The notes beneath the pieces were generated by a model. That model was given only the letters and a program-made list of their open reading frames with translations. It ran no database searches and was not told the DNA's origin. From Giardia intestinalis (Eukaryota): a stretch of DNA of 64,000 bases. Made by a program: the position numbers and the translations under genes. This document shows, in pieces, positions 10,157 to 60,212 of the stretch (its first letter is position 1; each line of letters starts with the position of its first letter). The stretch is taken from NCBI GenBank assembly GCA_000002435.2, contig CM018790.1; one strand, 5' to 3'.

Positions 10157-12409
10157 ATGGCGAAGCTCCCGGACAGATACTTTGAGATTGGGAAAATCGC
10201 AACAGGAGGATTCGCAACAATCTACCGAGCCGTAGATCTGGAGACAGGCTTGGTCGTAGCTCTCAAGGATACCATATATAATTGCTCGTCCAGGTCTGCG
10301 ACGAAAGCGATGCGTCGGGAAATCGCAATCTTGCGGAATATTCAACACTGCAATATTGTAAGGTGCTATGATATCCAAAGAGCCACTGAAGAGTCTAGAT
10401 ATTTCATTTCTATGGAGCTTTGTAATTGCGATTTACATGACTTCATTCGGGCCTTTCGTCATAAGAGGCGACGCATTCCCGAAGCTACAGTGCTCACGAT
10501 GATCAAGGATATTGCATCCGCATTAGCATTTCTCCATAATCCCATTAATTTTACGACTATCGATTCGCTCGACGCCGACGAAGACTCTATACGGGTCATA
10601 ATCCACAGGGACGTGAAGCCTGGGAATATAATGTTGGCAAATGACGGCTTCTTCAAGCTTTGTGACTTCAACTTGGCACGAGAAATCAACACGGTTACTG
10701 GGGCTATGTCTAACACCGGTACCATTGCGTACATGGCGCCTGAGCTTCTTGATGGCAAGAAATATGATGAGAAAGTTGACCTGTGGTCTCTTGGATGCAC
10801 AATTCACGAAATGTGCATGTATTACTCCCCATTTCACAATCAGTCTATAACTCAAGCTTTGAATAATATTATGATGGGCAGATACGACTCTATATGTAAT
10901 TTTTATTCTGAACGTTTACGAAAGCTGGTTCAGATGCTTCTCTCCATCAATCCACTAGACAGACCAAGCGCAGCAGAGCTCTTGGGGCATCCTCTCTTAG
11001 CAGATATCCGTAAAAACCTGGGAGAGCCTTCTCAAGCACGCTCAGATGACGACCGAATGGGAAGACTTGTAAAGAGGGCTGGGCCATCGAACAAATCCAC
11101 TGATTCTGAACACAGGCAGCCCTTCCCGCGGCAATCGGCCCCCGAACATGAGAAGCCTCTTACACCTACAAGGTCTCCGTACATGAAGCAGCTAACGCAA
11201 GTATCCAATGGAAAAGCAGCCCAGCTGCTGAACCTAGAGAAGAAGGTAGAACGTACCCAAACACCAGGACGAGTATTCAAGCAATTAAAGTATCCAATTA
11301 TAATACCTGATAAACATATAGATGAACCTAGGATTGAGGATACTCCGACTGTGCGCGCTAAGACACCAAGCGAGGGCAATCAGGAGCGGGAACAAGAGGA
11401 TACCAAGCAACCTCAACATATTCCTTATACACCTACATATAAGCTAGGATCTGAAACTCAGCATGTTCAAAGTTATCCTACGTTACAACACACATCCAAT
11501 TCTCCACGACGGCAAGGTGTGATAAGTGCAGGGTCAACTGGTGTCACCAAAGTATCGGCTCAACAATACGGTCAGGTAGGTGCACCCGATCTCCATCATC
11601 CTCAATTGCAGGTTGAGGACCGCGGCCAGCACCAACACACCCTTCTGGCGTCTTCTGCGGGACGGAGGTTGTCTGAACATGCCCTTAAGCGCTCCCAATC
11701 GAACCTCCAAACCAAACCGGAGGCACTGCAATCTCCAGTAGAGACAGCATTAATTGTAGCTGCTACCCAAAATAATAAAAAGGGTGTTACTTTGAATTTA
11801 AAGCAGGCGGGCTCGTATAATTCAGCTGGGATGACAGCACTTCATATTGCAGCCCACAACAACTACTACAGCATAATCCCGCTTCTCTTAGAGAAGGAAG
11901 GTAGAATGACCATGATTCGTGCATACAAATACAGGGGGGTTCGCTACCAGGGCTTGACAGCGCTCCATATTGCAGCAATCAATGGCTACGTTGAGTCAGT
12001 GTCAGTTTTGGCAACCACAGAAGCTAAGCAACAGGATGCACTGAACTCGCAAACCGCCCTGATGCTGTGCGCCATTCACAATCACATAGAGTGTGCGCGG
12101 ATTCTTATAGCTTACGAACGAGCCTGTCGCGATGCCAATGGAATGACGGCCCTGATTCACGCTATTGACTCTGAGAACATAGAACATGTGCGGCTACTAG
12201 CTCACTTGGAGAACACTGTCGAAGATACCAATGGTAGAACTCCTTTGACATATGCTGTAGCAAAGGGAAACACCGATATCATACGTGTTTTGCTTCCACT
12301 GCATAATAAGAGCGACGTCAGCAAATCCATTGACACGGTTCGCCAAGCAAAGCTCCTCTCGGACCGGAAACTCGATGAAATTGAGCGTTACATGAGGAAG
12401 TATGTGTAG
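10157..12409 (+). CDS. Ser/Thr protein kinase (NEK-like) with C-terminal ankyrin repeats
   Basis: ATG at 10157. Kinase motifs are a GKIATGGFATIY glycine loop, VVALKD, HRDVKPGNIML, DFNLAR (DFG changed to DFN) and TIAYMAPE. The C-terminus has at least five ankyrin repeats (GMTALHIAAHNN, GLTALHIAAINGYVESV, QTALMLCAIHNHIECARIL, GMTALIHAIDSENIEHVRLL, GRTPLTYAVAKGNTDIIRVLL). Confidence 0.85.
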   Translation: MAKLPDRYFEIGKIATGGFATIYRAVDLETGLVVALKDTIYNCSSRSATKAMRREIAILRNIQHCNIVRCYDIQRATEESRYFISMELCNCDLHDFIRAFRHKRRRIPEATVLTMIKDIASALAFLHNPINFTTIDSLDADEDSIRVIIHRDVKPGNIMLANDGFFKLCDFNLAREINTVTGAMSNTGTIAYMAPELLDGKKYDEKVDLWSLGCTIHEMCMYYSPFHNQSITQALNNIMMGRYDSICNFYSERLRKLVQMLLSINPLDRPSAAELLGHPLLADIRKNLGEPSQARSDDDRMGRLVKRAGPSNKSTDSEHRQPFPRQSAPEHEKPLTPTRSPYMKQLTQVSNGKAAQLLNLEKKVERTQTPGRVFKQLKYPIIIPDKHIDEPRIEDTPTVRAKTPSEGNQEREQEDTKQPQHIPYTPTYKLGSETQHVQSYPTLQHTSNSPRRQGVISAGSTGVTKVSAQQYGQVGAPDLHHPQLQVEDRGQHQHTLLASSAGRRLSEHALKRSQSNLQTKPEALQSPVETALIVAATQNNKKGVTLNLKQAGSYNSAGMTALHIAAHNNYYSIIPLLLEKEGRMTMIRAYKYRGVRYQGLTALHIAAINGYVESVSVLATTEAKQQDALNSQTALMLCAIHNHIECARILIAYERACRDANGMTALIHAIDSENIEHVRLLAHLENTVEDTNGRTPLTYAVAKGNTDIIRVLLPLHNKSDVSKSIDTVRQAKLLSDRKLDEIERYMRKYV

Positions 12410-12446: not shown

Positions 12447-15400
12447 TCATTGGATATTCAGGCTTGATAGTCTGGGATCACGTCTTAACCTATTTTCTAG
12501 CTCTGCAAAGCGCTTAATCGAGTCTTCCTCGTGCTTTCTGCTACGCATCTCTAGTATATCAATCCTAAAGACGCATTCTCGTATTTCGTTGAGGAGTGCA
12601 TCTCTATCTTCCTGGGATATCTGGTCTGACGATTTGTTGTAGACGGCTCGGCGACGCTTCAAGTGCTCTGCTTCTGCCTCCATTCGAGAAGAGATGATGC
12701 TGGCGCGTTCAACGAGGCGTGTTCTCAGTGCGTCTAGGGCGGCACCCCGGGTGATCATGGCGATATTCTGTGGCAGCGGTTCGGTAAGGCTCCAACCTTT
12801 ATACTCGTCTGGGAGATAGATGTACAAGTAGTCCGTATTGGTCGTCTCTTCTTCTTCGTGGGCTTTAATAGTGGTTTGAAACTCAAAGCGGTCCTGGGTT
12901 CCCTGAAGCTTTAGTGCGTGCCTAGCTATCTCCAAATCACGTGGAGAAAATTTCAGTCCAAGCCTGTTCCCTGACTTAAGGGTCTGACAAACAGTTATAT
13001 TGGCCGACTGGTCGACGCTGTTTCCGGCAGGCAGAAACTCACTCTCTGGTAACTTTGTTTCGGATTTGCATTCGATGGCGTGGAAGAGCTCCAACAGGAA
13101 TATATAGTCAAGCTTCATATTGGAAATGGTCCACTTCTCCCGCGACGATACCTGTGTGTATTCATCGCTGATATTTGCAACGGTCTTCTGCTGGTTCTTG
13201 GCAACTGCGGAAGAGTCAATGGTCCCGAGCTCCTTAGTTATCAAAGTGATACTCTTTCCTAAGTTAGCAATGTCCTGGCGTGCTACTGCTGTGCGTATAC
13301 TTTCTGCGGTGTAGGAGTCAGAGGCAGACAGATCTGCCATCATAAGAGATGCCTCTCCGGACTGCTTGTTAAATATCCTCTTCTCAGACATCAAATGTGG
13401 GCGCGTCATAGACTCCACAACCTCAATGTAATTATTCAACAGGTCGTATCGAATATGGTCATACGAAACAGCGCGCTTCATGACTACGCCGACGTTCCGT
13501 ACAGCAGAAGTCGTGGTATCGAAATGCGGTAGGATGGGTAGCTCTCTGGACTTAAGTAAATTGACATAGTTTAGGTAATTGAAGATCCCGGGGCTCGGGT
13601 CGTATAACTTGGGCATGTGCTTGATGTAGAAGGAGGGCGCTGTCTTCGAAAGCTCATTGTCAGTGATAAGAGCAAGATTATACGTGGGATAGAGAGCGGC
13701 AACCCCGGCAGGAACATTCGACGTGTTCTTTGTATTCATGAGAGCATAGACATCTCCAAGTAGCTCCTTGAGAGACCCAGATTTATTAGCCGATGGTGTA
13801 TCTGCTGCTGTTCGACTGAGAAGGCTCATATTCAATCCACGAGAACGGCCTGTCCTCTTTTCAGACCCTTGGAGCCAGAAGCCAGGCCCCCCTTCTCGGT
13901 GCTTATGAGTGTCAGCATCAGGAACACGCTCTGTATCTGCAGCGTTATCGTCTAAGTCATCGGGGTTATCGTCTGCGCTTTTCTTGGCGTCAGCCGCCTT
14001 TAGTATCTCGGGACTGAGGTGATAGGCCATCTCTAAGAGTGCCTCGTGGCGCGAAAGCAAGGAAGTCACTCCACAGTTCAAGTCATACTCAGAGGAATAA
14101 TAGGAACCAACGTCATGAGAAAAGAGAAGCCGCTGAGATTGGAATGATCTATATGCTGCACGTGATAAGTTTGCTTCAAACTCTTCAAATAAATCAAGAT
14201 TCGTAAGCGCATCCTCATTCTCAAGTACCGAGAGGCTTAAGGGATCTGATGGGCCCATGCTGGTCTGAGACTTTCCTGATTTTTCGCCCATTGAGGCCTG
14301 CGACGTACTGCGGTTTTGAGCCGTAGATTGATCGTCTACTACTTCGGTTGTTTCTAATGTCGTGTTATCGCCAGAACGAATAACAGTTGAGTCACGCTCT
14401 TGGTTGCTTACTGTCATAGAGGTACCATCATTGATTGTTGCATCACTAATGCTCGGAGCACTTGCCTGGGTCTTGTAGTCCGTCAGCAGCTGCTTGGTTT
14501 CGGCTTCTAGAATCTTGTCCTTACTGAAAATAAGCTTTCTTCGACGTCTACGCATATATCTATCGATAGAAGCTAGATTGGCAAACCTTTCAACAACCTT
14601 GCAACCTGAAACAGAGCACCTTTGGAACGTGTTAGTGTTAGGCAGGATTTCGAAAGAATCAAAAAGGATGGTATTGATGCTAAGAACCTTACTTTGTGGT
14701 GCAGATCTCTGGCCTCCTGCTACATTCTTGGCTGATGCCTGGCGCGAGGATACAGACGCTAGAGATGGGTCTGTGGATGTTGACGCAGATACTAACTCAT
14801 ATGCAATAACCTTGGTGCTCAGTCCATCTTCACGCAAGCAATCGTAGTAGCGTAGCTCGATGCTTCTGCCAATTAGGTGCTCTATAAACCCGCAGCTATC
14901 TTCTCTCCCAGGATAGAACCACAGCTTACGGGTCCGTACCTCCCCACTGATGTTTAGCACATGCTGCTTTAGGTAATCAGACCTTCCATAGTTAAAGAAC
15001 TGCTTTTGGAATGTCAACAGAAGAGGCAATTCGAAGGTAAATTCCTCTGGCATTTGGGTATCTCCGTCTTGCATGCTCTGGAATCCATGCGAGTCTGCCT
15101 CATCGAAGCCCTCAATGACCTCATTTGCATCTTCTACTGTGCCGCTGTCTGTGTCCCCCTTGCTGTGTCTAGTTCCGTGGACTGCACTCACTTTTCTCGA
15201 TGCCAAGCGACTGCCGACAGACACAGACGTTCGTCCATCACCTGAGTCGTGCTCTCTCATGGAAAGGTTACTGTCAATGACAGTCTTCTTTAACAGCGAG
15301 TCATCTACATCCAACGCCTCCCCTTGATCGATCTCTATAGGAGAAATCTCCTTCTTAACACGCCTGGTGAAGCAGGTAAACGAGGACTTAAAGGCCGTGT

Positions 15401-18038
15401 GGGCTGTCTTCTCATCAAGATCAGGATCACCCATTTCGTCTAACTCTTCTCCCAAATAGCACCAGATGGGAAACTCCTTGACGCCATCTATGTACGTTCT
15501 ATAGTATGTATCTAAGAGGGTTAGTGTCTCTCCTCCGTCATTGAAGCGGGTAAAGTAATCATAAACCTCAGGATTTGATAGATCAATCTTCACGTCGTCA
15601 TGATTGATTTCATATTGGCACGTTCGTAAAGAAAGCTTGTCGTGCCTGTCACTAAAGAGCTGAATGCGAAGAAGACGCCACGCTACAACCCGTTTGTCTA
15701 TAACGTCCATGTCTTCATCGGCAGAAATCATATACACTGGCCTGGGACGACAAACAATTGAGGCTATGCACCCACTACGCAGATTGAATCTAGGATACAA
15801 CCGGAGGAAGCAATCTGAATAGAGCGTGGCTCTTTCTGCTATGACCTTGTCACATGTCCCCAGGGCAACCAACTCCCTGGGACTGGCAACTCGCCGAGGA
15901 TATTGCCAAGCAAGACGCAGTTCGGAAAGACTAGTGGCCACACTCCACGGAGCAGGCAAGGACGACAAGAGGATCTCTATTGGTTCTACGGAATCCCACC
16001 TCTTTAAATACTTTTTAGCCTGCTCTCCTATCCCGAACATAGCATACTGCGCCTTGAGAGCCTCTAATCTGTTGTTTTCCTTTTCCACATTGGCCTCCTT
16101 GGCCCACCGCGTTGTATCAAAGCCCTGTTCTACCACCTTCTGCTGATGAATCTCTGCTTCACGCTCACGTTTGAGCTGATTTTGCCTGTCTTGAATAGCT
16201 CTTGGTAACTTGATCCCTGCCTCAAGCCTTTGGCGTGCGCCCTTGACGCCAAGCTGAGAGAGAAAGCGCTGGTTTCCACCTGCCTGCTTCACAATTTGAT
16301 CTGTGACCCCATTTTTGTTTAAATAGGCAAGTTGGCGGGCGCGCAGGTCAACCAACTCTTGGGTCATTAAGCAGATGCACCAGTTATCAATGTTATAAAA
16401 GTCAAAAGAGCAGTAATCGTTGGAGAGCTCACGCTTGTCCACTTGTAGATTAACGAAATAATTGTTCTGGTTAAAGACTGCTTCGATGAACCGAAATAGC
16501 GGGCAGTTCATGGTGTAGAACGAACCCGATGCAGGGTCAATGAAAAAGCCTGACTTCGTGGTCGAAGGGGTTTTGGCTTGGGCTATGATACTATTTATGT
16601 CTTCCTCCACATAATGCTTTTCTGTGACACCGGCATTGGTGCTACCCATCTGTAAGTCTTCAGTCGGGGCGACGTACACCCACGAATACACGCGTTGTCC
16701 ATGAAGCGGATCCGCTGTTAGCTCTTGTATTCGGAGCTTATTTTCTTGCCTAATAGAGTTGAGAGCACGGTCCTGTTCTTGCTTCTGCTGTATTCCCGCT
16801 TTTCCTGGGACAAGTACATCTTTTAGAAGATCGGCCGAACGCAGGCTGTCTATGATAAGAGATTCTATCTCTTTTTCTGAGGCACCAATGAGAGCAAGCT
16901 TATTTCGGAATCGTGTACGTTCATCAAACGCTGACGGTCGAATAAGATTTTTCGGTTTTAGATACTTATTTTTGAACAATCCGCCAATCAGCACATTCTC
17001 ATGTGGTATCTCCCTGTTGAATTCCTTCTCCTTTTTCCTATCGGCCCCTCTACCCTCCAGGACATTTGTCAGGGTATCTTCGAACGGCTCTTTGTCTGTT
17101 TCCGTTTCGGGGGCCACGATGAGAGAGCAGCCATTTGTGGTGGGATTCATAGAGATATTCTCTGCACCACCGGACATAACATAACGGCATCCACTGATAG
17201 ATTTAGTTTCTATGTCCGCAGGTGTTGAGAGTAACTTGTATGCACCGGATAAACCCCAGGGGTTCTTGACAGTGGCCCCTCCACTGATATCAACAGTGAT
17301 TGCTGCCCGCTCATTTTGACACTCCTGAACACCGCACCTAAGGAATACATTTTCGATGTCTTTCGAGGGGGAGTGAAGGCGCTTCAGAAGACCTCCCTCT
17401 GACGTGAAGTCCTGCTTATCTATGTGCGTATCATTAACCTCTCTACAGTAGCGTGCATCCACCTTATAAATTCCCAGTGGACGCTTTGAAAAGGCGGCTT
17501 CAGATGAAAATGACTGGACAGTATAGGTCGCATAGAGATTCAAGGGCTCACAACTTTCTGCCACTTGAAGATGAGTCTGCTGTTCTGTTAGCATTTTGTC
17601 TGCGTAGCCAATACAAACATAGGCATTGTATCCCGCCCCAATAAGAAGAGAGGCTAACAATATGGATAGATCGAAGCAGTCTCCTGTTTGCCATTCCAGG
17701 GTTGTTTGAGGAGATACTATGTAATCTGGGGGAAGATGAGGGTGCTCCAAAGGTTCGTAATTGATAGAATTTGCGACAAATTTGGCCAAGAAACCGGCAT
17801 CGCAAAGAGCAGGATCGGCCAAAATTGCCGGCCTGAGAGTAGTTGGAAGAAACTTCCGCACCCCACACTCATTGTGTGGCGCCAAGAGCAGCTGTTTTCT
17901 TGAAGGATTAAGAGTTAAAAATGTCGTTTCAAAATTGGCTATATAGTTCAGTAAGAGTTCTTCTCTGGCTGACACAGACGTGTATGATGAGGGAAGATCT
18001 GCTTTATTGACAGAAAAGATGCGATCAAGCTTATTCAT
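12447..18038 (-). CDS. Very large protein (about 1863 aa) with an N-terminal transglutaminase-like (TGc) domain; possibly axonemal DRC7/CCDC135-like
   Basis: The track start at 18110 is TTG. The first in-frame ATG is at 18038 (HLWMNKLD). The motif GDCFDLSILLASLLIGAGYNAYVCIGY matches the transglutaminase-like core pattern G-C...(R)-G-(PA)-V-GY. The rest is coiled-coil and low complexity. Confidence 0.65.
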   Translation of the reverse strand: MNKLDRIFSVNKADLPSSYTSVSAREELLLNYIANFETTFLTLNPSRKQLLLAPHNECGVRKFLPTTLRPAILADPALCDAGFLAKFVANSINYEPLEHPHLPPDYIVSPQTTLEWQTGDCFDLSILLASLLIGAGYNAYVCIGYADKMLTEQQTHLQVAESCEPLNLYATYTVQSFSSEAAFSKRPLGIYKVDARYCREVNDTHIDKQDFTSEGGLLKRLHSPSKDIENVFLRCGVQECQNERAAITVDISGGATVKNPWGLSGAYKLLSTPADIETKSISGCRYVMSGGAENISMNPTTNGCSLIVAPETETDKEPFEDTLTNVLEGRGADRKKEKEFNREIPHENVLIGGLFKNKYLKPKNLIRPSAFDERTRFRNKLALIGASEKEIESLIIDSLRSADLLKDVLVPGKAGIQQKQEQDRALNSIRQENKLRIQELTADPLHGQRVYSWVYVAPTEDLQMGSTNAGVTEKHYVEEDINSIIAQAKTPSTTKSGFFIDPASGSFYTMNCPLFRFIEAVFNQNNYFVNLQVDKRELSNDYCSFDFYNIDNWCICLMTQELVDLRARQLAYLNKNGVTDQIVKQAGGNQRFLSQLGVKGARQRLEAGIKLPRAIQDRQNQLKREREAEIHQQKVVEQGFDTTRWAKEANVEKENNRLEALKAQYAMFGIGEQAKKYLKRWDSVEPIEILLSSLPAPWSVATSLSELRLAWQYPRRVASPRELVALGTCDKVIAERATLYSDCFLRLYPRFNLRSGCIASIVCRPRPVYMISADEDMDVIDKRVVAWRLLRIQLFSDRHDKLSLRTCQYEINHDDVKIDLSNPEVYDYFTRFNDGGETLTLLDTYYRTYIDGVKEFPIWCYLGEELDEMGDPDLDEKTAHTAFKSSFTCFTRRVKKEISPIEIDQGEALDVDDSLLKKTVIDSNLSMREHDSGDGRTSVSVGSRLASRKVSAVHGTRHSKGDTDSGTVEDANEVIEGFDEADSHGFQSMQDGDTQMPEEFTFELPLLLTFQKQFFNYGRSDYLKQHVLNISGEVRTRKLWFYPGREDSCGFIEHLIGRSIELRYYDCLREDGLSTKVIAYELVSASTSTDPSLASVSSRQASAKNVAGGQRSAPQSKVLSINTILFDSFEILPNTNTFQRCSVSGCKVVERFANLASIDRYMRRRRRKLIFSKDKILEAETKQLLTDYKTQASAPSISDATINDGTSMTVSNQERDSTVIRSGDNTTLETTEVVDDQSTAQNRSTSQASMGEKSGKSQTSMGPSDPLSLSVLENEDALTNLDLFEEFEANLSRAAYRSFQSQRLLFSHDVGSYYSSEYDLNCGVTSLLSRHEALLEMAYHLSPEILKAADAKKSADDNPDDLDDNAADTERVPDADTHKHREGGPGFWLQGSEKRTGRSRGLNMSLLSRTAADTPSANKSGSLKELLGDVYALMNTKNTSNVPAGVAALYPTYNLALITDNELSKTAPSFYIKHMPKLYDPSPGIFNYLNYVNLLKSRELPILPHFDTTTSAVRNVGVVMKRAVSYDHIRYDLLNNYIEVVESMTRPHLMSEKRIFNKQSGEASLMMADLSASDSYTAESIRTAVARQDIANLGKSITLITKELGTIDSSAVAKNQQKTVANISDEYTQVSSREKWTISNMKLDYIFLLELFHAIECKSETKLPESEFLPAGNSVDQSANITVCQTLKSGNRLGLKFSPRDLEIARHALKLQGTQDRFEFQTTIKAHEEEETTNTDYLYIYLPDEYKGWSLTEPLPQNIAMITRGAALDALRTRLVERASIISSRMEAEAEHLKRRRAVYNKSSDQISQEDRDALLNEIRECVFRIDILEMRSRKHEEDSIKRFAELENRLRRDPRLSSLNIQ

Positions 18039-18528
18039 CCACAAATGGGAGCCGGAGTTTTTTACTTGGAAGGATTTGCTTTGTTTTGGTGAGGGGCCAT
18101 CTTTTCTCAACGGGATAATCTATCATGTGTGAAGCAGTCGTATTCAGTGGTAGGACCTGATGCTGAGTATAGGCCAATTTTATCGGGGAGTCAATCCCCT
18201 GCTATCACTTGCATCCATAAGACAACTTAGCCTCATTAGCTTTACAGCACTCAATACCAGACGCTATCTTGCAGATGGAACAATTATCAACAGAGTTATG
18301 TTCTGTTTTGGAGTTATAAGCAGGAGTGCAATCCTCGTAATACTAGTAGTGAACTGGTGTAAGAGAGGATTATTAGTTCAGACTGCATCAGGTCTAGCTT
18401 GTTGATAGAGCACCGTGGCTGACCTCTTGGATCTTCTAGGCGCCAATGATTTCGCTGCAATCCAAAAAGACTCGACTCCCAAGCCCCGCCTTCCGGCCAC
18501 TGAAACAGTGGGCGTGGCACGTAAGCGC

Positions 18529-18535
18529 GTTTACT
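18529..18535 (-). promoter_or_regulatory. Putative poly(A) signal AGTAAAC downstream of the VSP stop
   Basis: AGTRAAY-type motif 20 nt 3' of the VSP stop codon on the minus strand (established Giardia polyadenylation consensus). Confidence 0.45.
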
Positions 18536-18554
18536 ACCTAAGTCATATTTAAAT

Positions 18555-19814
18555 CTATGCCTTTCCGCGGCAGAGGAACCACCAGCAGAGGAAGCCGACA
18601 AGCCCTCCGACGACAACGATCACGGCGACGGAGATACCCGCGATGGCGCCAGTGGAGAGCCCGCTCCTGTTCGTGCTTCCGCCGGTACTGTCACCGTTCT
18701 TGAGGTAGCAGAGGACGGAGCCTTGATTATTAGATGGAGGAGCGCAGCTCATGCAGCCAGCAACTCCCTTGACACTTCCACTGTCACTTTCACATGATGT
18801 GCATGTCCCAGGATCTAATCCAACCATGTAGTACCCAGTTGCACACGTTGTACAAGCATTTGCAGAATTAGCATCACGACATGTCTTGCAGGTCGAATGA
18901 CACGAGGGGCATGCTCCATTATTAGGCTGAAGACTATTGGCGCACGTCTGACATCCACCATTGCTATCAGCTAGTGTGCATATCTGCTCACCGGGCTGTC
19001 TGCCGAGTTTATAGCAGCCTCCATCTTGAAGGAAATGATCTGCAGCACACTGAGTGCATACGCCACCTGCTGCGTTCGTGCAGAATGAATTCCTTGTTAC
19101 TGAATTAGCGCACACGCCATTCTGAGGTGCCCACTTATCTTCCTTGCATTTTGAACAGTACTTCGTACCGCCGATTACCGCTCCACACTCTGCACACCCG
19201 TCCACCTCTGCTTTGCACTCATCTACACAAGATCCACCTTGATTAGGATCATCATTGGTGTATTTTAGCATTTTCCCGGGAGGACAAGCTGTGCACTTCG
19301 CTGGTCCCTTTGTGGTGCACCCAGCACAGCTAGGATCACAAGGCTCGCACTCTTTGTCTCCGTTGTAGTAGCTTCCTATTGCTCCGCAGCTCTGCGTGCA
19401 CTGCTTTGTCGGGGTGAGGTAGTTGCCATCATTACATTCGGTGCAGATTTCGTTGTCTGTTTTGGGGTTGTCACATGCCTTGCAGTTGGGAGTATTGCAC
19501 TGCGTGTTAGAGGCCTTCTCGCACGCGGTCTTCCCATTGTTCAGGCTGAATCCCGGGTTGCACACGCAGACGTTCTGGTCGTTGGCTGCAGAGTTCTGGG
19601 GGCAAGTGGCGTCGCAGCTTACTCCATTGAGCTGCACCTTCTTTCCGCCGCCGCAGGTGAGGCACGTCTGGTCCTGGCCCACACCAGTGCAGGTCTCGCA
19701 GCCCGCCTGGGTCAGTCTTTCTTCGCATGCCGTGTTAGAGGCCTTCTCGCAGCCGTTCTTTCCGTTGTGCTTTGCCAGCACGGTTGCACAAACTAGGAGA
19801 AATCCTACCAACAT
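18555..19814 (-). CDS. Variant-specific surface protein (VSP), 419 aa
   Basis: ATG start. N-terminal signal MLVGFLLVCATVLA. Many CXXC motifs. GGCY motif (FLQDGGCYKLG). C-terminal TM GAIAGISVAVIVVVGGLVGFLCWWFL followed by the invariant CRGKA* tail. Confidence 0.92.
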   Translation of the reverse strand: MLVGFLLVCATVLAKHNGKNGCEKASNTACEERLTQAGCETCTGVGQDQTCLTCGGGKKVQLNGVSCDATCPQNSAANDQNVCVCNPGFSLNNGKTACEKASNTQCNTPNCKACDNPKTDNEICTECNDGNYLTPTKQCTQSCGAIGSYYNGDKECEPCDPSCAGCTTKGPAKCTACPPGKMLKYTNDDPNQGGSCVDECKAEVDGCAECGAVIGGTKYCSKCKEDKWAPQNGVCANSVTRNSFCTNAAGGVCTQCAADHFLQDGGCYKLGRQPGEQICTLADSNGGCQTCANSLQPNNGACPSCHSTCKTCRDANSANACTTCATGYYMVGLDPGTCTSCESDSGSVKGVAGCMSCAPPSNNQGSVLCYLKNGDSTGGSTNRSGLSTGAIAGISVAVIVVVGGLVGFLCWWFLCRGKA

Positions 19815-20484
19815 TAGCCGGGTTCGTGTGCCACTGCTCTTCCATCAGGCTGGTGTGTTGCCGCGAGCAGTGAGAGACAGCCGCTCTTGCTCTCTTGATC
19901 AGTTGGACCGGAGAAGGACGAGATAGGAGCACACCAACCAGAGGCCAGCTGATAGTGTAGTTCTCTCTGACTTCCATAGGAACAGGACCAGTGAGGGCCA
20001 GACTCAGACCGCACCTCTCTTGTGGAGTGATTGCTCGGGGCGCACTCCTGTACATTGCTGTCACTGTATCACTGACCCCGCCTGCAGGTGCGCTCAGAGG
20101 TCTCATGGGTAAGCTGCGCCCACTTCTCGACCGTCCGGAGACGATGGCTGGTTGTGGATAACATGACGAGAGTTCTCCCTAGTGATGCATCCAGAGCTCA
20201 GTGTGGTCCCTGATCGGCATACTCTGTCTGGGGCACTCCGCGTCGGCCTCCAGGATCCGGCCTGCTTAAGGCCATACAAGCCGTTAGTATGCCTCTCCTT
20301 GGCCTGCCATCGACAGCTCACACTGGGCGCCTTGCTCGGGTAGTAGCCAAGGCCACTCCAAAGGATGGCTCCGGATTGCAGTTAAAATCAGCTGCGGCTG
20401 TTGACTCCACTCCCTGTCCCAGCCACCGCAGAGGGCGCCCTAGGAGTTGCTAGTAACAGTGCAGTTAGCGGCTTTGCAGAGCCG

Positions 20485-22567
20485 ATGGGCGCTGGTGGCA
20501 TCCCCGTGCTCAGCGGGGGCCTTCAGTGTTATCTACTCTCCCAAGGGATGCCCCCACCTCACTGTGAAGGAGATCCGGCTCGACGGTCTGGATCAGCACG
20601 GTGTGGATGCTATTAAGCGTAGGCTGGCCGCCCTTCTTAACATCTTTCACCCGGGTCCTCAAGTATCATCAAGTAGTCGAGGACGAGGGCCTCATCTACG
20701 TCGTCACGGACCGGCACGACAAGACCCTCGAGCACCTCCTCGCCGAGCACAAACGAAGGAAGACCCCCGTCCCCATTACTATGATCCTCTCCGTCATGAA
20801 GCAGGTCGCCGCCGCCCTCGCCTACCTCCACGGCCTCAGCGAGGTAAGTGCTAACAGGCTTGTCCACCGCGACCTCAGGCCTACCAATATCCTCATCAGC
20901 GCAGATGGTGAACACTTCGTCATCGCCGACTTCGGCCTCTGCAAGGACGCCCTGTGGAGTGGGAGTACTCTCATGGGAGTGGCGTACATGGCCCCCGAGA
21001 TTCTCCTCCGTAATGAGACCAGCCATGCTTCCGACATGTGGAGCCTCGGGGCCATCATTTATGAATTAGTAACTCTGAGGAGACCGGACTTCTTGGGGGG
21101 CAAGGAGCCGGCAGAGGTCTTCGTCGATGGGTGGAGACCAGACCTGAGCGGTCTCACTGATGGCTTCATGCAGAATGTTCTGGAGGGGATATTCGTATTG
21201 GAGCCAGAGAGGAGGCCGACGGCCAGGGAGCTGCACGAGACGCTCGCTACATTCGACATCCCAGTTGGTGAGTTGGGAGGTCAGTGCGTGATGCTGAAGT
21301 ATAAGTGCGGATCCTTGGAGGCTGCGCTGAATGGCGCTAACGCCAGGATCGCGTTGCTGGAAGAGGATGTTAAGATTAAATCTACTAAGATCGACGCACT
21401 TGAAGACCAAAGTAAGGAACATCTAGCTATGATTAAGGCACTGGAGAATAAGCTTGCACAGTTCGATGACAGGATGAACACGACTGACCCTCAGTCCAGC
21501 CTCTTTTTGTTGCCCGGGCTGATGCGTGCCGCGCATACGAATAGCACGGAGACCGTCTGGATGCTGCTTGAAGAAAGACTCGGTGTTGGTCAGCGCGACG
21601 AGCAGGGGCGCATCAGTCCCGTCGAGTTGCTTGTTGGGGAGGAGAACGGTCTCCAGGACAAGAATGGCTGGACTACCTGATGATCGCCACAGAGGAGGAC
21701 TATGCAAGAGCTGCCTCCCTTCTGGTCCCATATGAGAAGGACCGGATCGGCAGCGAAGGCAAGACGGCCTTGGTGATGCGGCAGAGGCAGGACATGGAAC
21801 CGTGGTGGAGGCCATCGACCCAACCGATGAGAATGGCATCACAGCACTCATGCGAGCTGTTAATAGAAACGACGCGGGGGCTGTGAAGGCAGTCATACTT
21901 AGCCAGAGAAGGAGGAAAACATACAAAGAGGTCACAAGAAGCGGATGGTACATGCGCAAAGGAACAGCTCTGATGATGGCTGCGGCAATGGATACGCAGA
22001 AATAGTAGAACTGCTAGCAGAGCACGAAAAGGGAGAGAAAGTAGGCGGTTGGGCCGCTCTCGTATTCGCGGCACTGTGCAATCGTTCCAATGACCCCCTG
22101 GTGGACTATATTGGGCACGTTGAGCTTTTGATGGAGTATGAGAGCAGTATCTCAGGGTGGACGGAGCTCATGTATGCAGCAGCACGAGGGCACGAAGGAA
22201 TCGTAGAGCTACTCGAGCAGGAGACTGGCATAAGGAACAACGAGCATCAGACTGTCCTCACATGGACGGTGTGCAATGGCCATCCAGAGTGTGTCAGACC
22301 CCTGCTGAAGGACGAAGGCGGCATGCAAACGACCAAGGGGGGATCGCCCTTATGAACGCAGCATATAGCAACGCCGTGGAGTGTGTAAGGCTTCCTAAAG
22401 AAAACGAGAAGGATCTGAAGACAACCTGCAGTTGCTATGATCACTCGCCCGGTACCACTGCTTTCGACATCGCTAAGAAGAAGGATCACAAAGAGATGGT
22501 AGGCATCCTCTCAAACGAGATCTACTCTGTTTCAACAATGTCGGCTTGCCAGCTCCTGTCCGAGTAA
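20485..22567 (+). pseudogene. NEK-type kinase + ankyrin-repeat gene disrupted by at least five frameshifts (pseudogene)
   Basis: The ATG at 20485 is immediately out of frame with the N-lobe (GAFSVIYSPKG...VKEIRLD). The kinase core (HRDLRPTNIL, DFGLCK, YMAPE) continues in another frame (track ORF 20601..21680, GTG-initiated). A coiled-coil follows. Ankyrin repeats (GKTALVMR, GITALMRAVNRNDAGAVKAV, GWAALVFAALCN, GWTELMYAAARGHEGIVELL, GGIALMNAAYSNAVECV) are then spread over frames 2, 1, 0 and 2 between 21680 and 22567. Other long ORFs in the window are intact, so sequencing error is an unlikely cause. Confidence 0.7.
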
Positions 22568-22569
22568 AC

Positions 22570-23597
22570 CCGTCCAGAGTCCGAAGCTCGGATGCCGTCC
22601 ACTCTGGAGAAGAGCCTTGTGCATCCCGCCTGGGAGCCGTTGGGTGCCCCACTATGCGCTTCGGGGCGTCCCTTCTCTCTGGTCCGTCGGGGTCAGCCAT
22701 CGTCTGACATCTATTGAGCTCCTGCTGTCCCGGGCCTGCCGTCGGTCACAGCAGCCTGGCCTCCACGTGGCCCTGGTGCTCTACGACGAGGATCGCACGC
22801 CACGACCTCGGGTGTCTACCCCGTTCCTCGGGTGCCTCTTTGTCTCCCCATGACGTGGATCATCGACCCTATTGTCGGAGGTGCGCTCCCCATACGCCTC
22901 CATCTTGGAGTCATAGTACGCGTTCGTGGATGCCGATGGAGTACTCCCATGCGTTGTGTCGGGGAGAGGTCCGGCCCTCTGCTCACGGATCGCAGGGCGC
23001 TTTTGCAGGTGGTCCGTCACCCAGCACGAGATCATGTCAGCGCTCACCCTGTGCAGTGCGTCTGGCTCAGTGACGTGTGGGCTGGTCCATCTGCACCGCA
23101 CAGCACGCTTGGGGGAATGATTCGGTCTGTCGAGGCGTCATCCGAGGCATCAGAAGCGATCAGGACCGGTTCGCCGCTTGGTTGTCCCGCTCGGCAGCCG
23201 GCACCCGTCTACTCGAGGGTGTCAGGCACTGCCAGCTGCTGCGGCAGACGCCTGGCGGGTGGCCCAGGTCACCGCTCTCCGGTGTGGGCAGGATCAGTCC
23301 GCCTCTGCCAACCAGACACCCCAGGGGCCCCATCTCTTGTCGAGGGATTCACATGGGTCACGTGTGGGTCCATCCCGGCCAGTGGGCAGTGATTGGTGCC
23401 ATCACTGGCTCCAGGCCCTCCGTTGCCTTCTCTATCGCCTCGGGGAAGGAGGCATAAATCTTCCCCGTCAGAAGCAGACGGCATCCGACTTCGGACTTCG
23501 GATTCTGGGTCTCGGCTGGTGAACAAACGAGAGACTGCCAGCCTAGTGCGGCGGTGGCTCGCACGAGGGGGTTTATCCGGGTAGCAGTCGGCAAACC
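22570..23597. mobile_element. Short (~1 kb) copy of a GC-rich non-coding repeat with inverted terminal segments (copy 1)
   Basis: About 99% identical to 53700-54450 over roughly 750 bp, as shown by near-identical spurious ORFs in all frames. The right ~130 bp (23465-23597, ...GCGGCGGTGGCTCGCACGAGGGGGTTTATCCGGGTAGCAGTCGGCAAAC) recurs at 36850-36981 and, reverse-complemented, at 35936-36060 and 53487-53620. The left end keeps a ~30-bp rc remnant (TCCGAAGCTCGGATGCC). Confidence 0.7.
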
Positions 23598-26514: not shown

Positions 26515-28029
26515 ATGCGTTTTCTTTTCTGTGGAGATATCCATGGGAACGAGCAGCAACTGAGCGCAATTGTACGCTATACGTGGAAGCACAAGATTGA
26601 TGTTTTTGTTTTTCTCGGAGATTTTTCTCCCAATAGGTTTATGTACGAAAGCCCTCCAAAAGCAGATGCATTCAATAGGGACACGATTTTCCCCCTTTTT
26701 AGAGCTATCAATGCTAGATATAAGTTTGTTATGCCAGGTAATACAGACTTTGCCACTAACTCCACTATCTATGAGAACGAATTTACTGATCCTAGATTTG
26801 GCCTTTTTGAATACATTAGGCACGGAGTTCGGTACATAGACGGTAAAATTGGTGTGCTCTTTTCATCATACACTAATATATCTCCACACTCTCTCAAGGA
26901 CTCTGAGTGCGTGGATGTGGAGCGAGACAAAGTAATCCCACCAGGAAACTCCTCTCACGCACGCATGGGCACGCGCCAAACAACCCGTGTTATTGTTGAC
27001 TATGAAGAGTGTCCACGTTGTGGGCCGAACTGCATCTGCAAGGTAAAGGAAGACATCATTACTACACACAGAGATATAGAGCGGCACGCAAAGATCAAGT
27101 ATGTAGTCGCAGAGAGTCTTGCGGTTAAGGGTGTAATTAGCAAAGAACCAGATCCTAATGAGCTCTCTGATGACCCTTCCGTCGAGCCTATTATGCTCTC
27201 CGACGCCCTGGCATACAGCAAGAAGTACTTTGAGGTGGTAGATGTTATGGACCCTAGAACCCAACCGGAATGGTATCGAATTCAGCAGCAGACAACCATA
27301 TGCACCAAGATGAAAGCAACTCTTCTCAGCCTCTGTGGACTGTATGATAAGGCAGGCTATATGCAAGGTCTCAACCTGCCTCTAGAGCAGATACCAGAGG
27401 CAAATAATGTGAAGTTTGTGACTAATGAGCGAATAAAGAAGTTCGATGTTGTGGAGTGGCATAATGAGTGTTGCACTGAGTTAGTAGGTCGCTCTTTTGG
27501 AGAAGAGGAAACTTTTAAGTGGACAGACTCCAAGGACGCTTCAGGCACAGAGGTGTACATGCCACTACATTTGCGGCGTCGCATGCCGCCTCCTGTTGTG
27601 CTCTGGGCAACTCACGGCCCCACATTCAATACCACCGCTGATCGACTACGATCTGGAGACCATTGTGGAAGTAAGGGATATAGAAATATTCTCAATCTCT
27701 TGCCTTTTGAGTACATGCCAGACATCCAAATCAGCGGTCATATCCATGAGGCAGCTCGCGACGGAACATTCAGTTCATCAGAGGCGTTCACCAAAGACTG
27801 CGGAGACAAGCTGGTTGAGTTCACTAGTATTGGTAATGAAGGGCTTGTTGTCCCTTTCTGTCTCAATGTAGCATTCATTCTAATGGACTTCGATGATACC
27901 GGGAAGCTTCTTGATTACCAGCGCGTCGTTATCCCTGTTCAGCCGTACAGAGACAGTGAGGAAGCAGTGAAGCGTTTTCGGGCTAGTCTTTCTAGGGTAA
28001 CAAACATCAAAAGAGGCGACAGGGGCTGA
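26515..28029 (+). CDS. Calcineurin-like metallophosphoesterase domain protein
   Basis: ATG at 26515. Motifs are CGDIHGN (GDxHG), FLGDFSPNR (GDxxxR), MPGNTDF (GN[HT][DE]) and SGHIHEA (GHxH). Confidence 0.65.
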   Translation: MRFLFCGDIHGNEQQLSAIVRYTWKHKIDVFVFLGDFSPNRFMYESPPKADAFNRDTIFPLFRAINARYKFVMPGNTDFATNSTIYENEFTDPRFGLFEYIRHGVRYIDGKIGVLFSSYTNISPHSLKDSECVDVERDKVIPPGNSSHARMGTRQTTRVIVDYEECPRCGPNCICKVKEDIITTHRDIERHAKIKYVVAESLAVKGVISKEPDPNELSDDPSVEPIMLSDALAYSKKYFEVVDVMDPRTQPEWYRIQQQTTICTKMKATLLSLCGLYDKAGYMQGLNLPLEQIPEANNVKFVTNERIKKFDVVEWHNECCTELVGRSFGEEETFKWTDSKDASGTEVYMPLHLRRRMPPPVVLWATHGPTFNTTADRLRSGDHCGSKGYRNILNLLPFEYMPDIQISGHIHEAARDGTFSSSEAFTKDCGDKLVEFTSIGNEGLVVPFCLNVAFILMDFDDTGKLLDYQRVVIPVQPYRDSEEAVKRFRASLSRVTNIKRGDRG

Positions 28030-35935: not shown

Positions 35936-36981
35936 CGGGATCGGTTTGCTAGCCGCGACCCGAGCCAGTCCCGCGGAAGAAGAGCTTTGTGCTTCCTCCG
36001 AGGCAATAGCGGATGCACCGGAGACCCTGAGGCTGGCAGTGGATGCGCCAGTCACTCACCACCCGAGCCGAGCTGGTCTGGACAGACTCACCACGCGACC
36101 CCTACGGATCCCTCGGAGGGCAGGCCTGCCCTCTGGACGCCCGGCTCGAACAACAGTGGACCGAGCTCCTGGCTACGCAGGACAGCGGCGGTCGGGAGTC
36201 CACCACAAGCAGCTGCGCGGTGCCTGACACCTCGACGTGAGACGTGGCATCACAGCAGGCTGCCGAGCGGGACAACCAAGCGGCGAACCGGTCCTGATCG
36301 CTTCTGATGCTTTGGACGATGCCTCGACAGACCGAATCATTCCCCCAAGCGTGCTGTGCGGTGCAGATGGACCAGCCCACACGTCACTGAGCCAGACGCA
36401 CTGCACAGGGTGAGCGCTGACATGATCTCGTGCTGGGTGACGGACCACCTGCAAAAGCGCCCTGCGATCCGTGAGCAGAGGGCCGGACCTCTCCCCGACA
36501 CAACGCATGGGAGTACTCCATCGGCATCCACGAACGCGTACTATGACTCCAAGATGGAGGCGTATGGGGAGCGCACCTCCGACAATAGGGTCGATGATCC
36601 ACGTCATGGGGAGACAAAGAGGCACCCGAGGAACGGGGTAGACACCCGAGGTCGTGGCGTGCGATCCTCGTCGTAGAGCACCAGGGCCACGTGGAGGCCA
36701 GGCTGCTGTGACCGACGGCAGGCCCGGGACAGCAGGTGCTCAATAGCTATCAGGCGATGGTTGACCCCGACGAGCCAGAGGAAGGGGGAACCCTGGAGGC
36801 ACCGCGAGGAGCGGCAGCTTCCAGGGGAGGGGGGCATAGAAGTTCTTCCGCCGGGATCCGAGGACATCCGACTCCCGAACTCTGGATTTGGATTCCAGCC
36901 GATGCAAGGGCGAGAGAGACCCGCTTGCCCAGAGCGGCGGTGGCTCGCACGAGGGGGTTTACTCGGGTAGCAGCCGGCAAA
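35936..36981. mobile_element. Short (~1 kb) inverted copy of the same repeat, with both terminal inverted segments (copy 2)
   Basis: The body is the reverse complement of copy 1 and copy 3. Mirror-image ORFs (MPLCLPMTWIIDPIVGG..., MSTCCPGPAVGH..., MRCRWTSPHV...) are identical in sequence. The left end is rc of the terminal segment (GGCTCG...GCTAGCAAACCGATCC) and the right end is the direct terminal segment (GCGGCGGTGGCTCGCACGAGGGGGTTTACTCGGGTAGCAGCCGGCAAAC). Confidence 0.7.
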
Positions 36982-52970: not shown

Positions 52971-53042
52971 GCGGTCATAGTACAGTGGCTAGTATGCGTG
53001 ACTGTCACTCACGTGACCCGGGTTCGATTCCCGGTGACCGCG
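52971..53042 (+). tRNA. tRNA-Asp: tRNA-Asp (anticodon GTC)
   Basis: Hand-folded cloverleaf. Acceptor GCGGTCA/TGACCGC. D-arm GTAC-AGTGGCTA-GTAT. Anticodon stem CGTGA/TCACG with loop CTGTCAC (U33, A37). Variable loop TGAC. T-arm CCGGG-TTCGATT-CCCGG. Discriminator G. CCA is not encoded. Confidence 0.85.
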
Positions 53043-56400: not shown

Positions 56401-56590
56401 GGGCTTCTTCTTCCGCCGGAGCTGGACGGCGCCCGATTCTCGGACTCTGGGTTCAGACATCGAACAGGTAAATGATCGAAGACCCCCCTGGTGTAGAAAC
56501 TCGCATAGAATTTGCTCGGACGGCAGCTAACAAACCAATCTCGGTGGACAGAGGTATGTTCATAGGGCGTTTGCCTTATAGTCATTATCT
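53487..56590. mobile_element. Long (~3.1 kb) GC-rich non-coding copy of the repeat (copy 3); probable full-length form of the element
   Basis: The left end is rc of the terminal segment (53487-53620, homologous to 36850-36981 in reverse). The 53700-54450 interval is ~99% identical to copy 1. About 2 kb of 60-65% GC sequence follows, with ORFs open in all six frames and no credible CDS. Near 56500-56590 (AACAAACCAATCTCGGTGG...) there is a degenerate match to the terminal segment. The right boundary is approximate. Confidence 0.5.
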
Positions 56591-59500: not shown

Positions 59501-59591
59501 TGGGTAGGATGTGGAGGATTCTTTTAGCAGTGCAGATGTCCATAAGAGGTAGCTACAAAGCTGAGGATAAAGCAAGAACCCCAAATAGTAT

Positions 59592-59900
59592 TCAATTCAA
59601 CGGTGTAGTGATAGATGCAGTAGTGGGAATACGCTTCCGGCTAAGAGCAACGTGCTTCGCCCCATAGGGCTGCGTGCGTCTATACAGGAACCACCACAGG
59701 AGAAAGCCGACCACCGACCCAACGAGGAGAACCGCAGCCACGGACACTCCGGCTATCATGGCTGTCTTCCTTGTCGAGCTCGGGGCTGGAGCTGGAGCTG
59801 GAGTCGGGATGATGCTCGGGAGCGCATCAAAGGAGTAGATATGAGTGGCCCTATCTGCTAGAGTTGGATGTCCATGAATATCTTGTAATTTATAAAGCAT
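59592..59900 (-). CDS. Small ORF (102 aa) encoding a VSP/HCMP-like transmembrane anchor without a CRGKA tail; possible remnant or small membrane protein
   Basis: ATG start. It has a PAPAPAP linker, then the TM AMIAGVSVAAVLLVGSVVGFLLWWFLYRR that resembles the VSP/HCMP anchor. There is no Cys-rich ectodomain or signal peptide. It lies about 1.7 kb upstream of an HCMP gene. Confidence 0.3.
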   Translation of the reverse strand: MLYKLQDIHGHPTLADRATHIYSFDALPSIIPTPAPAPAPSSTRKTAMIAGVSVAAVLLVGSVVGFLLWWFLYRRTQPYGAKHVALSRKRIPTTASITTPLN

Positions 59901-60212
59901 CCCACCATTTTCATATGCTGAATCTTACCCGTTGCATATATGTATGTACTAACATACAGTAAGAAGGCCGAATATGAGTGTTTCTGAAAGAATTACTTGA
60001 TATCAAAACATTTCCTCTGGACGCAGAGATGTATAGCAGACCATTTTGATCTTCCATCTCACTACAGTTTCTATAAGACGGATGGTCTGAATACAGTGCG
60101 GGGAAAGTGCTGAGTGTTCTAAAACCCATCCGAAGTGGCTAGGTGTGACAATGAGCAAATCTCTATTCTAGATAAAGTAACCAAGTCGTGCTATCAGCAC
60201 TTGGCTTATGCC

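Follow-up and report, generated by a model that had tools for sequence, protein, structure and literature searches.

A probable Nek-GL4 kinase–ankyrin pseudogene of Giardia intestinalis WB, apparently disabled before its duplication and mosaic in sequence

Results

A full-length but broken Nek gene

The window analysed is a stretch of 64,000 nucleotides from contig CM018790.1 of the Giardia intestinalis WB assembly GCA_000002435.2. Positions 20485-22567 of the window hold a Nek kinase gene with ankyrin repeats that is full-length but broken: kinase, linker and ankyrin array can be read in that order provided that the frame is changed six times. Three-frame translation, Pfam and tblastn with intact relatives all recover this arrangement, as the original prediction had it. 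The features of the locus and its immediate surroundings are as follows.

18555-19814, minus strand: intact VSP gene ("VSP with INR", KAE8302221.1 / XP_001707134.1), the divergent upstream neighbour; Pfam VSP E=4e-91, exact match to a WB protein
19815-20484, plus strand: spacer between VSP and Nek, with the 5′ region; conserved at the DH locus (blastn against L001, 86-87%)
20485-20514, plus strand: ATG (ancestral start) and first 10 codons, MGAGGIPVLS; frame 1; aligns with the ATG of P0050, an intact gene of P15, and with P0057
20513-20656, plus strand: kinase N-lobe, AGAFSVIYS...LTVKEI...AIKRRLAAL...FHPG; frame 2; nearest to the P0057/P0061/P0063/P0068 Nek subfamily
20655-21680, plus strand: kinase hinge, C-lobe, heptad-like linker and what is left of the first ankyrin unit; frame 0 (20655-21677), ending at TGA 21678-21680
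20865-20888, 20928-20936 and 20991-20999, plus strand: kinase motifs HRDLRPTN, DFG and APE, in that order
21677-21778, plus strand: ankyrin segment LMIATEED...GKTALVM; frame 2
21778-21987, plus strand: ankyrin segment AAEAGHG...ITALMRAV...GTALMMAAA (Pfam); frame 1
21990-22340, plus strand: ankyrin segment GYAEIVELL...GWTELMYAA...GGMQTTKG; frame 0; Pfam Ank_2 E=1.6e-14
22343-22567, plus strand: last ankyrin units and conserved C-terminus ...CQLLSE, as in the intact P15 gene P0002; frame 2 (22343-22564), stop TAA 22565-22567
22670-23427, no strand assigned: repeat of about 760 nt outside the gene, beginning some 100 nt after the gene's stop

Pfam detects Pkinase on 20568-21677 (E=3e-28) and, further downstream, Ank_2 on three pieces. 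Some nine ankyrin units of TALM type can be made out (ITALMRAV, GTALMMAAA and IALMNAAY are among the motifs); at least five had been predicted originally. The template thus still runs from start codon through kinase, linker and ankyrin units to the conserved tail.

A homology search returned 90 relatives, with a best full-length E=1e-250. The top matches are all Giardia Neks; kinase and linker are 73-80% identical to GL4-type proteins. The kinase domain clusters with Nek-GL4, and the architecture, with the kinase at the N-terminus and ankyrin repeats of TALM type behind it, is that of Nek-GL4. The same order of kinase, linker and TALM-ankyrin array is found in the intact Nek-GL4 genes of P15 ("Kinase, NEK", P0002, 769 aa) and DH (P0001, 865 aa). 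Both are read in one uninterrupted frame and carry the canonical GL4 N-terminus, M..ASSGSAT...FT.RELHE.., whereas that of the window is of MGAGG type; P0002 also shares the C-terminal tail and has an HxDLRPTN loop.

In WB the locus is flanked by a DRC7-like gene and the VSP gene on one side and a Kelch gene on the other. The adjacency of VSP and Nek recurs in L001 (the DH copy), in L007 (ENA) and in L009, which suggests that the VSP gene belongs to a VSP plus dead-Nek cassette. Positions 20422-20484 can be read as an upstream extension of relatives such as P0057 (tblastn, P0057 residues 15-45, 84% identical). The Nek gene had been described as lying next to an intact paralog-type gene, which holds only loosely: a Nek at 10157-12409 (750 aa) is the only other Nek-ankyrin gene in the window, and it lies two genes away and is about 26% identical.

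The downstream repeat is a retroelement remnant. Further copies lie at 53694-54449 (97%) and, on the minus strand, at 36208-36786 (95%), and the repeat is tied to a decayed non-LTR retroelement at 54690-56420 (minus strand). Pfam found no match in ORFs within the repeat, Tandem Repeats Finder found no tandem repeats in 15-28 kb, and the only Rfam hit in the window was a tRNA (52971-53042).

Six frame-breaking deletions

Lesions were mapped by a three-way DNA alignment of the window, the DH copy and the intact P15 gene P0002, together with a four-way alignment of the 5′ end. Relative to intact relatives, the frame is broken by six deletions (−41 at 20514, −2 at 20655, −94 at 21675, −1 at 21776, −1 at 21988 and −1 at 22340); two further deletions, of 3 nt and 33 nt, are in frame. 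The lesions listed here are all on the plus strand.

20508-20520: lesion 1, net 41-nt deletion, about 12-13 codons lost; common to the WB window, DH L001 and ENA L007 (DNA alignment)
20653-20658: lesion 2, 2-nt deletion, frameshift; not in the DH copy, present in the WB siblings GK101 and GK102
21606-21611: 33 nt deleted in frame, with loss of the TALM core from the first ankyrin repeat; also in the DH copy and WB sibling pseudogenes
21672-21680: lesion 3, 94-nt deletion, equal to one 31-codon ankyrin unit plus 1 nt, yielding GWTT-TGA; also in the DH copy
21774-21779: lesion 4, 1-nt deletion that leaves T from TT; confined to the window copy, compared with the DH copy
21985-21990: lesion 5, 1-nt deletion, GCACATGG to GCAATGG, outside any homopolymer; in the window copy only, compared with the DH copy
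22336-22343: lesion 6, 1-nt deletion; also in the DH copy

Five of the six frame changes that had been proposed fall within about 45 nt of a mapped lesion: that after the ATG, those near 20640 (in fact 20655), 21680, 21800 (21776) and 21945 (21988). The sixth, near 22157, is merely a GTG inside another frame, and the actual shift is at 22340.

The alignments identify the ATG at 20485 as the ancestral start, cut off from the N-lobe by the 41-nt deletion. We had considered that the N-terminus was simply missing, GL4-type N-termini not being alignable, and dropped this when the MGAGG-type subfamily was found. The larger deletions may have arisen by slippage, or by unequal recombination between short direct repeats or adjacent ankyrin units.

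The conceptual protein retains K72 (the Lys of LTVKEI), D166 (HRD) and D184 (DFG), the three residues on which Manning et al. base their rule. The alpha-C Glu is replaced (AIKRRLAAL, with RRL instead of LEL), a loss that came with the N-lobe from another Nek subfamily. The catalytic-loop Lys is Arg, and HRDLRPTN had been taken as a hint of an earlier pseudokinase state. This reading is not supported: Arg occupies the position in at least 30 of 59 loops of relatives, mostly in uninterrupted ORFs, and across GL4 in the alignment of Manning et al.; many intact members of the family have HRDLRP(A/T)N.

The lesions recur in independent data

If the frameshifts were sequencing or assembly errors, the gene would be intact in the organism. 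PacBio homopolymer errors did truncate some genes in the draft of the 2020 WB assembly before polishing, and the lesions at 21776 and 22340 lie within or beside short runs. Against this, the assembly was indel-polished with 100x Illumina data, the 21988 deletion lies outside a homopolymer, and deletions of 41 and 94 nt are the error type of no platform. The neighbouring ORFs of 4.6-5.7 kb are intact; the three long uninterrupted frames that had been reported in the window were recovered at 36-5645, 12447-18110 and 41282-45916. Independent data repeat the lesions. The 357-aa ORF at 20607-21677 (ATG 20607) and XP_001707132.1 of the 2007 annotation are identical; the frameshifted sequence was rebuilt by Manning et al. 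from GiardiaDB 2.3; and the −41, −33, −94 and −1 (22340) deletions recur in the independently sequenced DH and ENA assemblies. An artefact is accordingly highly improbable, and the earlier judgement that this is a true pseudogene holds.

Ten alternative ORF calls for the gene fragments, looked up by exact sequence in independent short-read (Logan) contigs, returned no match, and no contig records encoding the VSP or the WB Nek P0063 were found. Short-read contigs of WB-like samples end just upstream of the Kelch gene, beside the repeat.

Programmed ribosomal frameshifting, or other recoding, might in principle restore a single protein, and an ortholog alignment had been named as the means of detecting it. 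The ordered arrangement of the pieces speaks for recoding, and nothing more does. Six shifts of differing size and direction would be required, two of them owing to deletions of 41 and 94 nt when compared with relatives read in a single frame; the intact relatives need no recoding; and the lesions vary among copies, the DH copy lacking three and having a 46-nt deletion of its own. Under programmed frameshifting every copy should have the same single recoding site and keep both frames, a pattern that these copies do not display. We regard recoding as effectively refuted, with a probability close to nil.

Lesions are shared with diverged copies

The DH copy (AHGT01000023.1; P0010 plus downstream fragments) is about 87% identical to the window at the DNA level, that is, about 13% diverged, and has different flanking genes. 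Orthologs of assemblages A1 and A2 are nearly identical; because the flanks differ and identity is only 87%, we rejected the DH locus as an ortholog and treat it as a paralogous copy. P0010 and P0068 were likewise rejected as intact genes, since their "M" starts are TTG and GTG, artefacts of the ORF caller.

Window and DH copy have in common the −41 and −1 (22340) deletions, the −94 deletion with the GWTT-stop that it creates, and the 33-nt in-frame deletion. The −41 deletion is present in a third assembly (ENA) as well. The sibling pseudogenes GK101 (GL50803_137735), GK102 (137737) and GK140 (104063), like the DH copy, have the same broken 5′ end as the window, ELLVTVQLAALQ...ALVASPCSAGAFSVIYS, and lack the same 11 codons (GQRDEQGR/H.SPVELL); GK101 and GK102 also share its frameshift at FHPxVLKYHQV.

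These data bear on the proposal of a recent gene death in the WB lineage, possibly caused by the adjacent repeat insertion. In its favour, the deletions at 20655 (−2), 21776 (−1) and 21988 (−1) are not in the DH copy, in-frame stop codons have not accumulated, and the repeat is just downstream. However, three frame-breaking lesions, including the loss of frame 10 codons after the ATG, are found in copies from other isolates that are at least 13% diverged, and the 20655 lesion is also in the WB paralogs GK101 and GK102. None of the lesions coincides with the repeat, whose first base, 22670, is about 100 nt away from the stop, and the DH copy has the same gene–repeat junction; the repeat therefore did not kill the gene. 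Recent death is thus very unlikely. The lesions shared with the diverged DH copy, the ENA assembly, GK101 and GK102 argue that the gene died long ago and was disabled before it was duplicated. An already disabled gene would then have been copied along with the adjoining VSP gene and the downstream retroelement remnant.

Mosaic similarity to intact genes

Between the window and the sibling and DH pseudogene copies, the kinase cores differ patchwise (74-99% nucleotide identity). Positions 20755-20935 are 90-92% identical to the intact ENA gene P0009 and 74-80% to the DH pseudogene copy; positions 21025-21160 are 93-96% identical to the intact DH gene P0001 as against 77-81%. Beyond about 21160, identity to the DH pseudogene copy is mostly 90-99%, dropping to 80-89% at 21835-21925 and 22060-22240. 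Different patches thus best match different intact GL4 genes, a patchwork that points to gene conversion. Start and N-lobe are not of GL4 type and are closer to the P0057/P0061/P0063/P0068 subfamily (31-34 of 40 residues); the locus is therefore a chimera, with a GL4 body and an N-lobe from another Nek subfamily.

Between the window and the DH copy, dN/dS is 0.3-0.45 in the ancestral frame and about 1 (0.6-1.2) in the shifted frames, which served as control, and neither dead copy has an in-frame stop over some 660 ancestral codons. A neutrally decaying pseudogene would have dN/dS near 1 and accumulating stops; neither was seen here, and both observations are unexpected for a long-dead sequence.

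One explanation is that the fragments are still useful, either as a protein of kinase lacking the N-lobe plus linker (the 357-aa ORF) or as a donor for gene conversion. The dN/dS contrast (0.31-0.45 against 0.6-1.2), the mosaic similarity to intact genes and the former annotation of the 357-aa ORF as a gene would all fit, as would SAGE tags that indicate constitutive expression, although much non-coding DNA is transcribed in Giardia. Neither the Gly-loop nor the beta3 Lys is encoded by the 357-aa ORF. Look-ups in the accession series of the 2020 annotation found no protein from the locus: the VSP gene is ...221, a phosphoesterase is ...223, and the single number between them presumably belongs to the Kelch gene. 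In the ankyrin part dN/dS is low as well, although that part is split over four frames and cannot give a single translation product, and this favours imported variation over selection on the window copy. Continued usefulness of the fragments is therefore very improbable.

We suggest instead that gene conversion with intact members of the family continued once the copy had been duplicated, and that the seemingly selected differences between the two dead copies arose in this way. The low dN/dS might alternatively be explained by the lateral spread of lesion-bearing patches.

Discussion

Taken together, the data make it very probable that 20485-22567 is a non-functional duplicated (non-processed) Nek-GL4 kinase–ankyrin pseudogene; it is the locus already catalogued as GL50803_119989 / GK119. 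The frame is disrupted relative to intact homologs by six deletions, and lesions are reproduced in the 2007 ORF, GiardiaDB 2.3 and the DH and ENA assemblies.

The locus is real, ordinary and already known. Manning et al. (2011, Genome Biol 12:R66, Additional file 1, row G089) list GL50803_119989, GK119, as Nek-GL4, "Pseudogene", "N - multiple GiardiaDB", with seven ankyrin repeats, no significant coil and SAGE values of R=1.67, "Constitutive", 13.7; it is one of 30 kinase pseudogenes in WB, 29 of which are GL4. Over the part of the supplement compared, our conceptual translation is identical to theirs, with x (frameshift) after FHPG and an upstream stop (*ELLVTVQ...). Low constitutive transcription, predicted to yield no full-length protein, would agree with the published SAGE data.

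Their reading of GK119 begins at a stop-bounded frame and does not remark on the ATG at 20485 as ancestral start; the entry gives no lesion map, isolate comparison or comment on a mosaic, and their pseudogene search did not extend to GS and P15. What is added here is a base-level lesion map, the demonstration that the ancestral start is the ATG at 20485, the evidence for death before duplication, and the chimeric, mosaic structure with its coding-frame signature.

Trypanosome VSGs and Giardia VSPs likewise have many dead copies interspersed with live ones, lying in gene-poor regions without synteny and patchwork in sequence; the VSP family has 208 pseudo-VSPs. The likeness is one of behaviour, not of membership, and, unlike VSG and VSP, there is no evidence that Nek diversity serves antigenic or other programmed variation.

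By itself the locus is of little importance; the coding-frame signature relative to its sister pseudogene is a possible small worked example of gene conversion in Giardia's variable gene neighbourhoods. We raise, tentatively and as something that may well prove wrong, the idea that VSP gene, broken Nek and retroelement remnant form a cassette that was copied to several loci, whose dead Nek still exchanges sequence with live GL4 Neks. If so, that exchange would have left its footprint in the low dN/dS of the two dead copies, and such pseudogenes would be active in GL4 turnover and diversification as donors, acceptors or homology arms, rather than inert debris.

A kinase-ankyrin gene read across successive frames

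That the locus at 20485-22567 is one kinase-ankyrin gene, legible only by moving between frames, was borne out by three-frame translation, Pfam and tblastn with intact relatives. Its landmarks are as follows.

20485: start ATG, aligned with the start codon of P0050, an intact P15 gene
20558-20575: N-lobe motif LTVKEI
20865-20888: catalytic loop HRDLRPTN
20928-20936: DFG
20991-20999: APE
22565-22567: stop codon TAA, directly after the conserved tail ...CQLLSE

The kinase is followed by a heptad-like linker and then by approximately nine TALM-type ankyrin units. Searched against the database, the conceptual protein returned 90 relatives; the strong matches are all Giardia Neks, and full-length matches have E-values near 1e-250. 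A 357-aa ORF (20607-21677) is identical to XP_001707132.1 ('Kinase, NEK'), a match that exact-sequence look-ups confined to the 2007 annotation set. The conceptual protein retains K72, D166 and D184 and has no alpha-C Glu (AIKRRLAAL), as in the subfamily that donated the N-lobe.

The arginine of HRDLRPTN had been read as a hint of an earlier pseudokinase state. Among the 59 recognisable loops of relatives at least 30 carry Arg at this position (HRDLRPAN in 11, HCDLRPAN in seven, RCDLRPAN in six, plus others) and approximately 24 carry Lys. The same spread runs across GL4 in the alignment of Manning et al. 2011 (PMC3218828), where 101534, the one localised 'active' GL4 Nek, has the loop HRDLKPAN. 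Arg being so widespread, it is a family trait, uninformative as to the history of the window copy, and a prior pseudokinase state is not supported.

Lesions and their distribution among copies

The region was aligned with the DH copy (L001, AHGT01000023.1) and the intact P15 gene P0002 (769 aa, in locus L006), and the 5' end with P0050 and the ENA assembly locus L007. Relative to intact genes the window copy carries eight lesions, six of which break the frame.

Lesions in the window copy (position: change; distribution)
20514: net -41 nt, ten codons past the ATG; common to DH and ENA copies
20655: -2 nt; not in the DH copy, present in WB siblings GK101 and GK102
~20978: -3 nt, in frame; common to the DH copy
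21608: -33 nt, in frame, with loss of the first ankyrin unit's TALM core; DH copy and WB siblings
21675: -94 nt, one base more than a 31-codon ankyrin unit, creating GWTT-TGA; DH copy
21776: -1 nt; window copy only
21988: -1 nt, outside any homopolymer; window copy only
22340: -1 nt; common to the DH copy

The alignments upheld five of the six frame changes in the original prediction, including that right after the ATG, and moved the sixth from 22157 to 22340. In the ATG frame, 20422-20514 matches residues 15-45 of P0057, a member of another Nek subfamily, at 84% identity.

Assembly error had been thought unlikely on the strength of three long uninterrupted ORFs, which are indeed present in the ORF listing. 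Several observations argue that the frameshifts are genuine and the pseudogene call right: the 2007 protein set contains the ORF between lesions 2 and 3 unchanged; the reconstruction by Manning et al. was drawn from GiardiaDB 2.3; four lesions are seen again in genomes sequenced independently; and platform errors do not take the form of 41-, 33- and 94-nt deletions. WB-like short-read contigs end just upstream of the Kelch gene, beside the ~760-nt repeat described below.

The DH copy is 87% identical to the window across 2.8 kb, and its left flank (a HECT gene, a 754-aa gene and a repeat) differs from that of the window (a DRC7-like gene); on both grounds it is a paralogous copy rather than the A2 ortholog. 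Lesions -41, -33, -94 and 22340 are nonetheless common to both. The ENA copy has the -41 lesion with a different kinase body, and the broken 5' end recurs in WB siblings GK101, GK102 and GK140. In the DH and ENA gene calls the initial 'M' is a TTG or GTG codon, and these starts were rejected as caller artefacts. The lesions common to these copies indicate that death preceded duplication, with only the -2, -1 and -1 lesions arising after the DH-type copy had split off. The proposed recent gene death is thus not supported.

Flanking repeat and neighboring genes

Death had also been tentatively linked to the adjacent repeat, of approximately 760 nt.

22670-23427: repeat copy beside the Nek
36208-36786, minus: third copy, 95% identity
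53694-54449: second copy, 97% identity
~54690-56420, minus: decayed non-LTR retroelement, broken by stops and frameshifts, resembling a P15 reverse-transcriptase ORF

The Nek-side copy begins approximately 100 nt beyond the stop codon and its junction is also found in DH; the repeat did not disrupt the gene. It occurs three times within 64 kb at 95-97% identity, and pieces also lie beside genes in P15 (L006) and DH (L001). The copy at ~54 kb abuts the retroelement, which has 35-56% protein identity to a P15 zinc-finger and reverse-transcriptase ORF (L006 3771-5744) and occupies the window's GC-richest stretch (62.6%). Directly upstream of this block is a tRNA gene.

18558-19814, minus: VSP, exact match to KAE8302221.1 / XP_001707134.1 (WB C6)
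26515-28026: calcineurin-like phosphoesterase, exact match to KAE8302223.1
28214-29503, minus: p54 helicase, exact-sequence match
52971-53042, plus: tRNA gene (67.7 bits), the window's sole Rfam hit
61756-64000, plus: cysteine-rich VSP/HCMP-like coding region continuing past the window end, 29-35% identical to the window VSP

The upstream gene has a Giardia VSP domain (Pfam) and a CRGKA tail, and is divergent from the dead Nek. The pairing recurs at L001, L007 and L009, in agreement with the 2020 WB genome paper, which has VSP, NEK and ankyrin genes clustered in gene-poor, non-syntenic regions. In the ENA assembly the broken Nek and a homologous VSP share a strand (L007 1-2376 against window 18517-21232), whereas the two diverge in WB, an arrangement implying that the VSP segment has been inverted between cassette copies. 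The window contains just one further Nek-ankyrin gene (10157-12409), two genes distant and ~26% identical. The ~3.6 kb at 56600-60200 (~43% GC) hold just two short mechanical ORFs, of 135 and 121 aa, with nothing longer than 140 aa, unusual in a genome that is 81% coding.

Published record

The locus is already in the literature. For WB, Manning et al. 2011 (PMC3218828) gave 30 kinase pseudogenes, 29 of them in Nek-GL4; Additional file 1 lists this one as G089, GL50803_119989, GK119, Nek-GL4, 'Pseudogene', 'N - multiple GiardiaDB', with seven ankyrin repeats and SAGE values of R = 1.67, cluster 'Constitutive' and max %×1000 = 13.7. Over the part compared, the GK119 conceptual sequence is that of the window locus, with the frameshift after FHPG shown as 'x'. 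As a published member of a published class the locus is of low interest. The 2020 WB genome paper gives 184 NEKs and many pseudo-VSPs, with PacBio indels polished by Illumina. Exact-sequence look-ups found no protein from the dead Nek in the 2020 accession series, where a single number, presumably the Kelch gene, separates the VSP (KAE ...221) from the phosphoesterase (KAE ...223). Overall, the original observation is real and largely accurate; its inferences of recent, repeat-linked death and a prior pseudokinase are unsupported.

Mosaic structure and substitution pattern

When the conceptual protein was tiled against relatives, the best match shifted along the gene.

N-lobe: P0068, P0061
Catalytic-loop region: P0009
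C-lobe: P0007, P0026
Linker: P0001, P0073 (40/40 residues)
First ankyrins: P0009
Tail: P0002

In DNA identity, the intact ENA gene P0009 is closer than the DH pseudogene copy at 20755-20935 (90-92% against 74-80%), and so is the intact DH gene P0001 at 21025-21160 (93-96% against 77-81%). From ~21160 on, identity to the DH pseudogene copy lies mostly at 90-99%, falling to 80-89% at 21835-21925 and 22060-22240.

Comparison of window and DH pseudogene copy in the ancestral frame gives dN/dS values of 0.33 (kinase), 0.31 (linker) and 0.45 (ankyrins), against 0.6-1.24 when the two shifted frames are used for the same alignment. Differences over 20444-22567 fall 65/61/101 at codon positions 1/2/3, and neither copy has an in-frame stop in the ancestral frame. 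A dN/dS of 0.31-0.45 without stops is unexpected for long-dead sequence. Given the mosaic structure, the most economical account may be gene conversion that continues between this copy and intact paralogs, or patches that spread laterally and carry the lesions with them.
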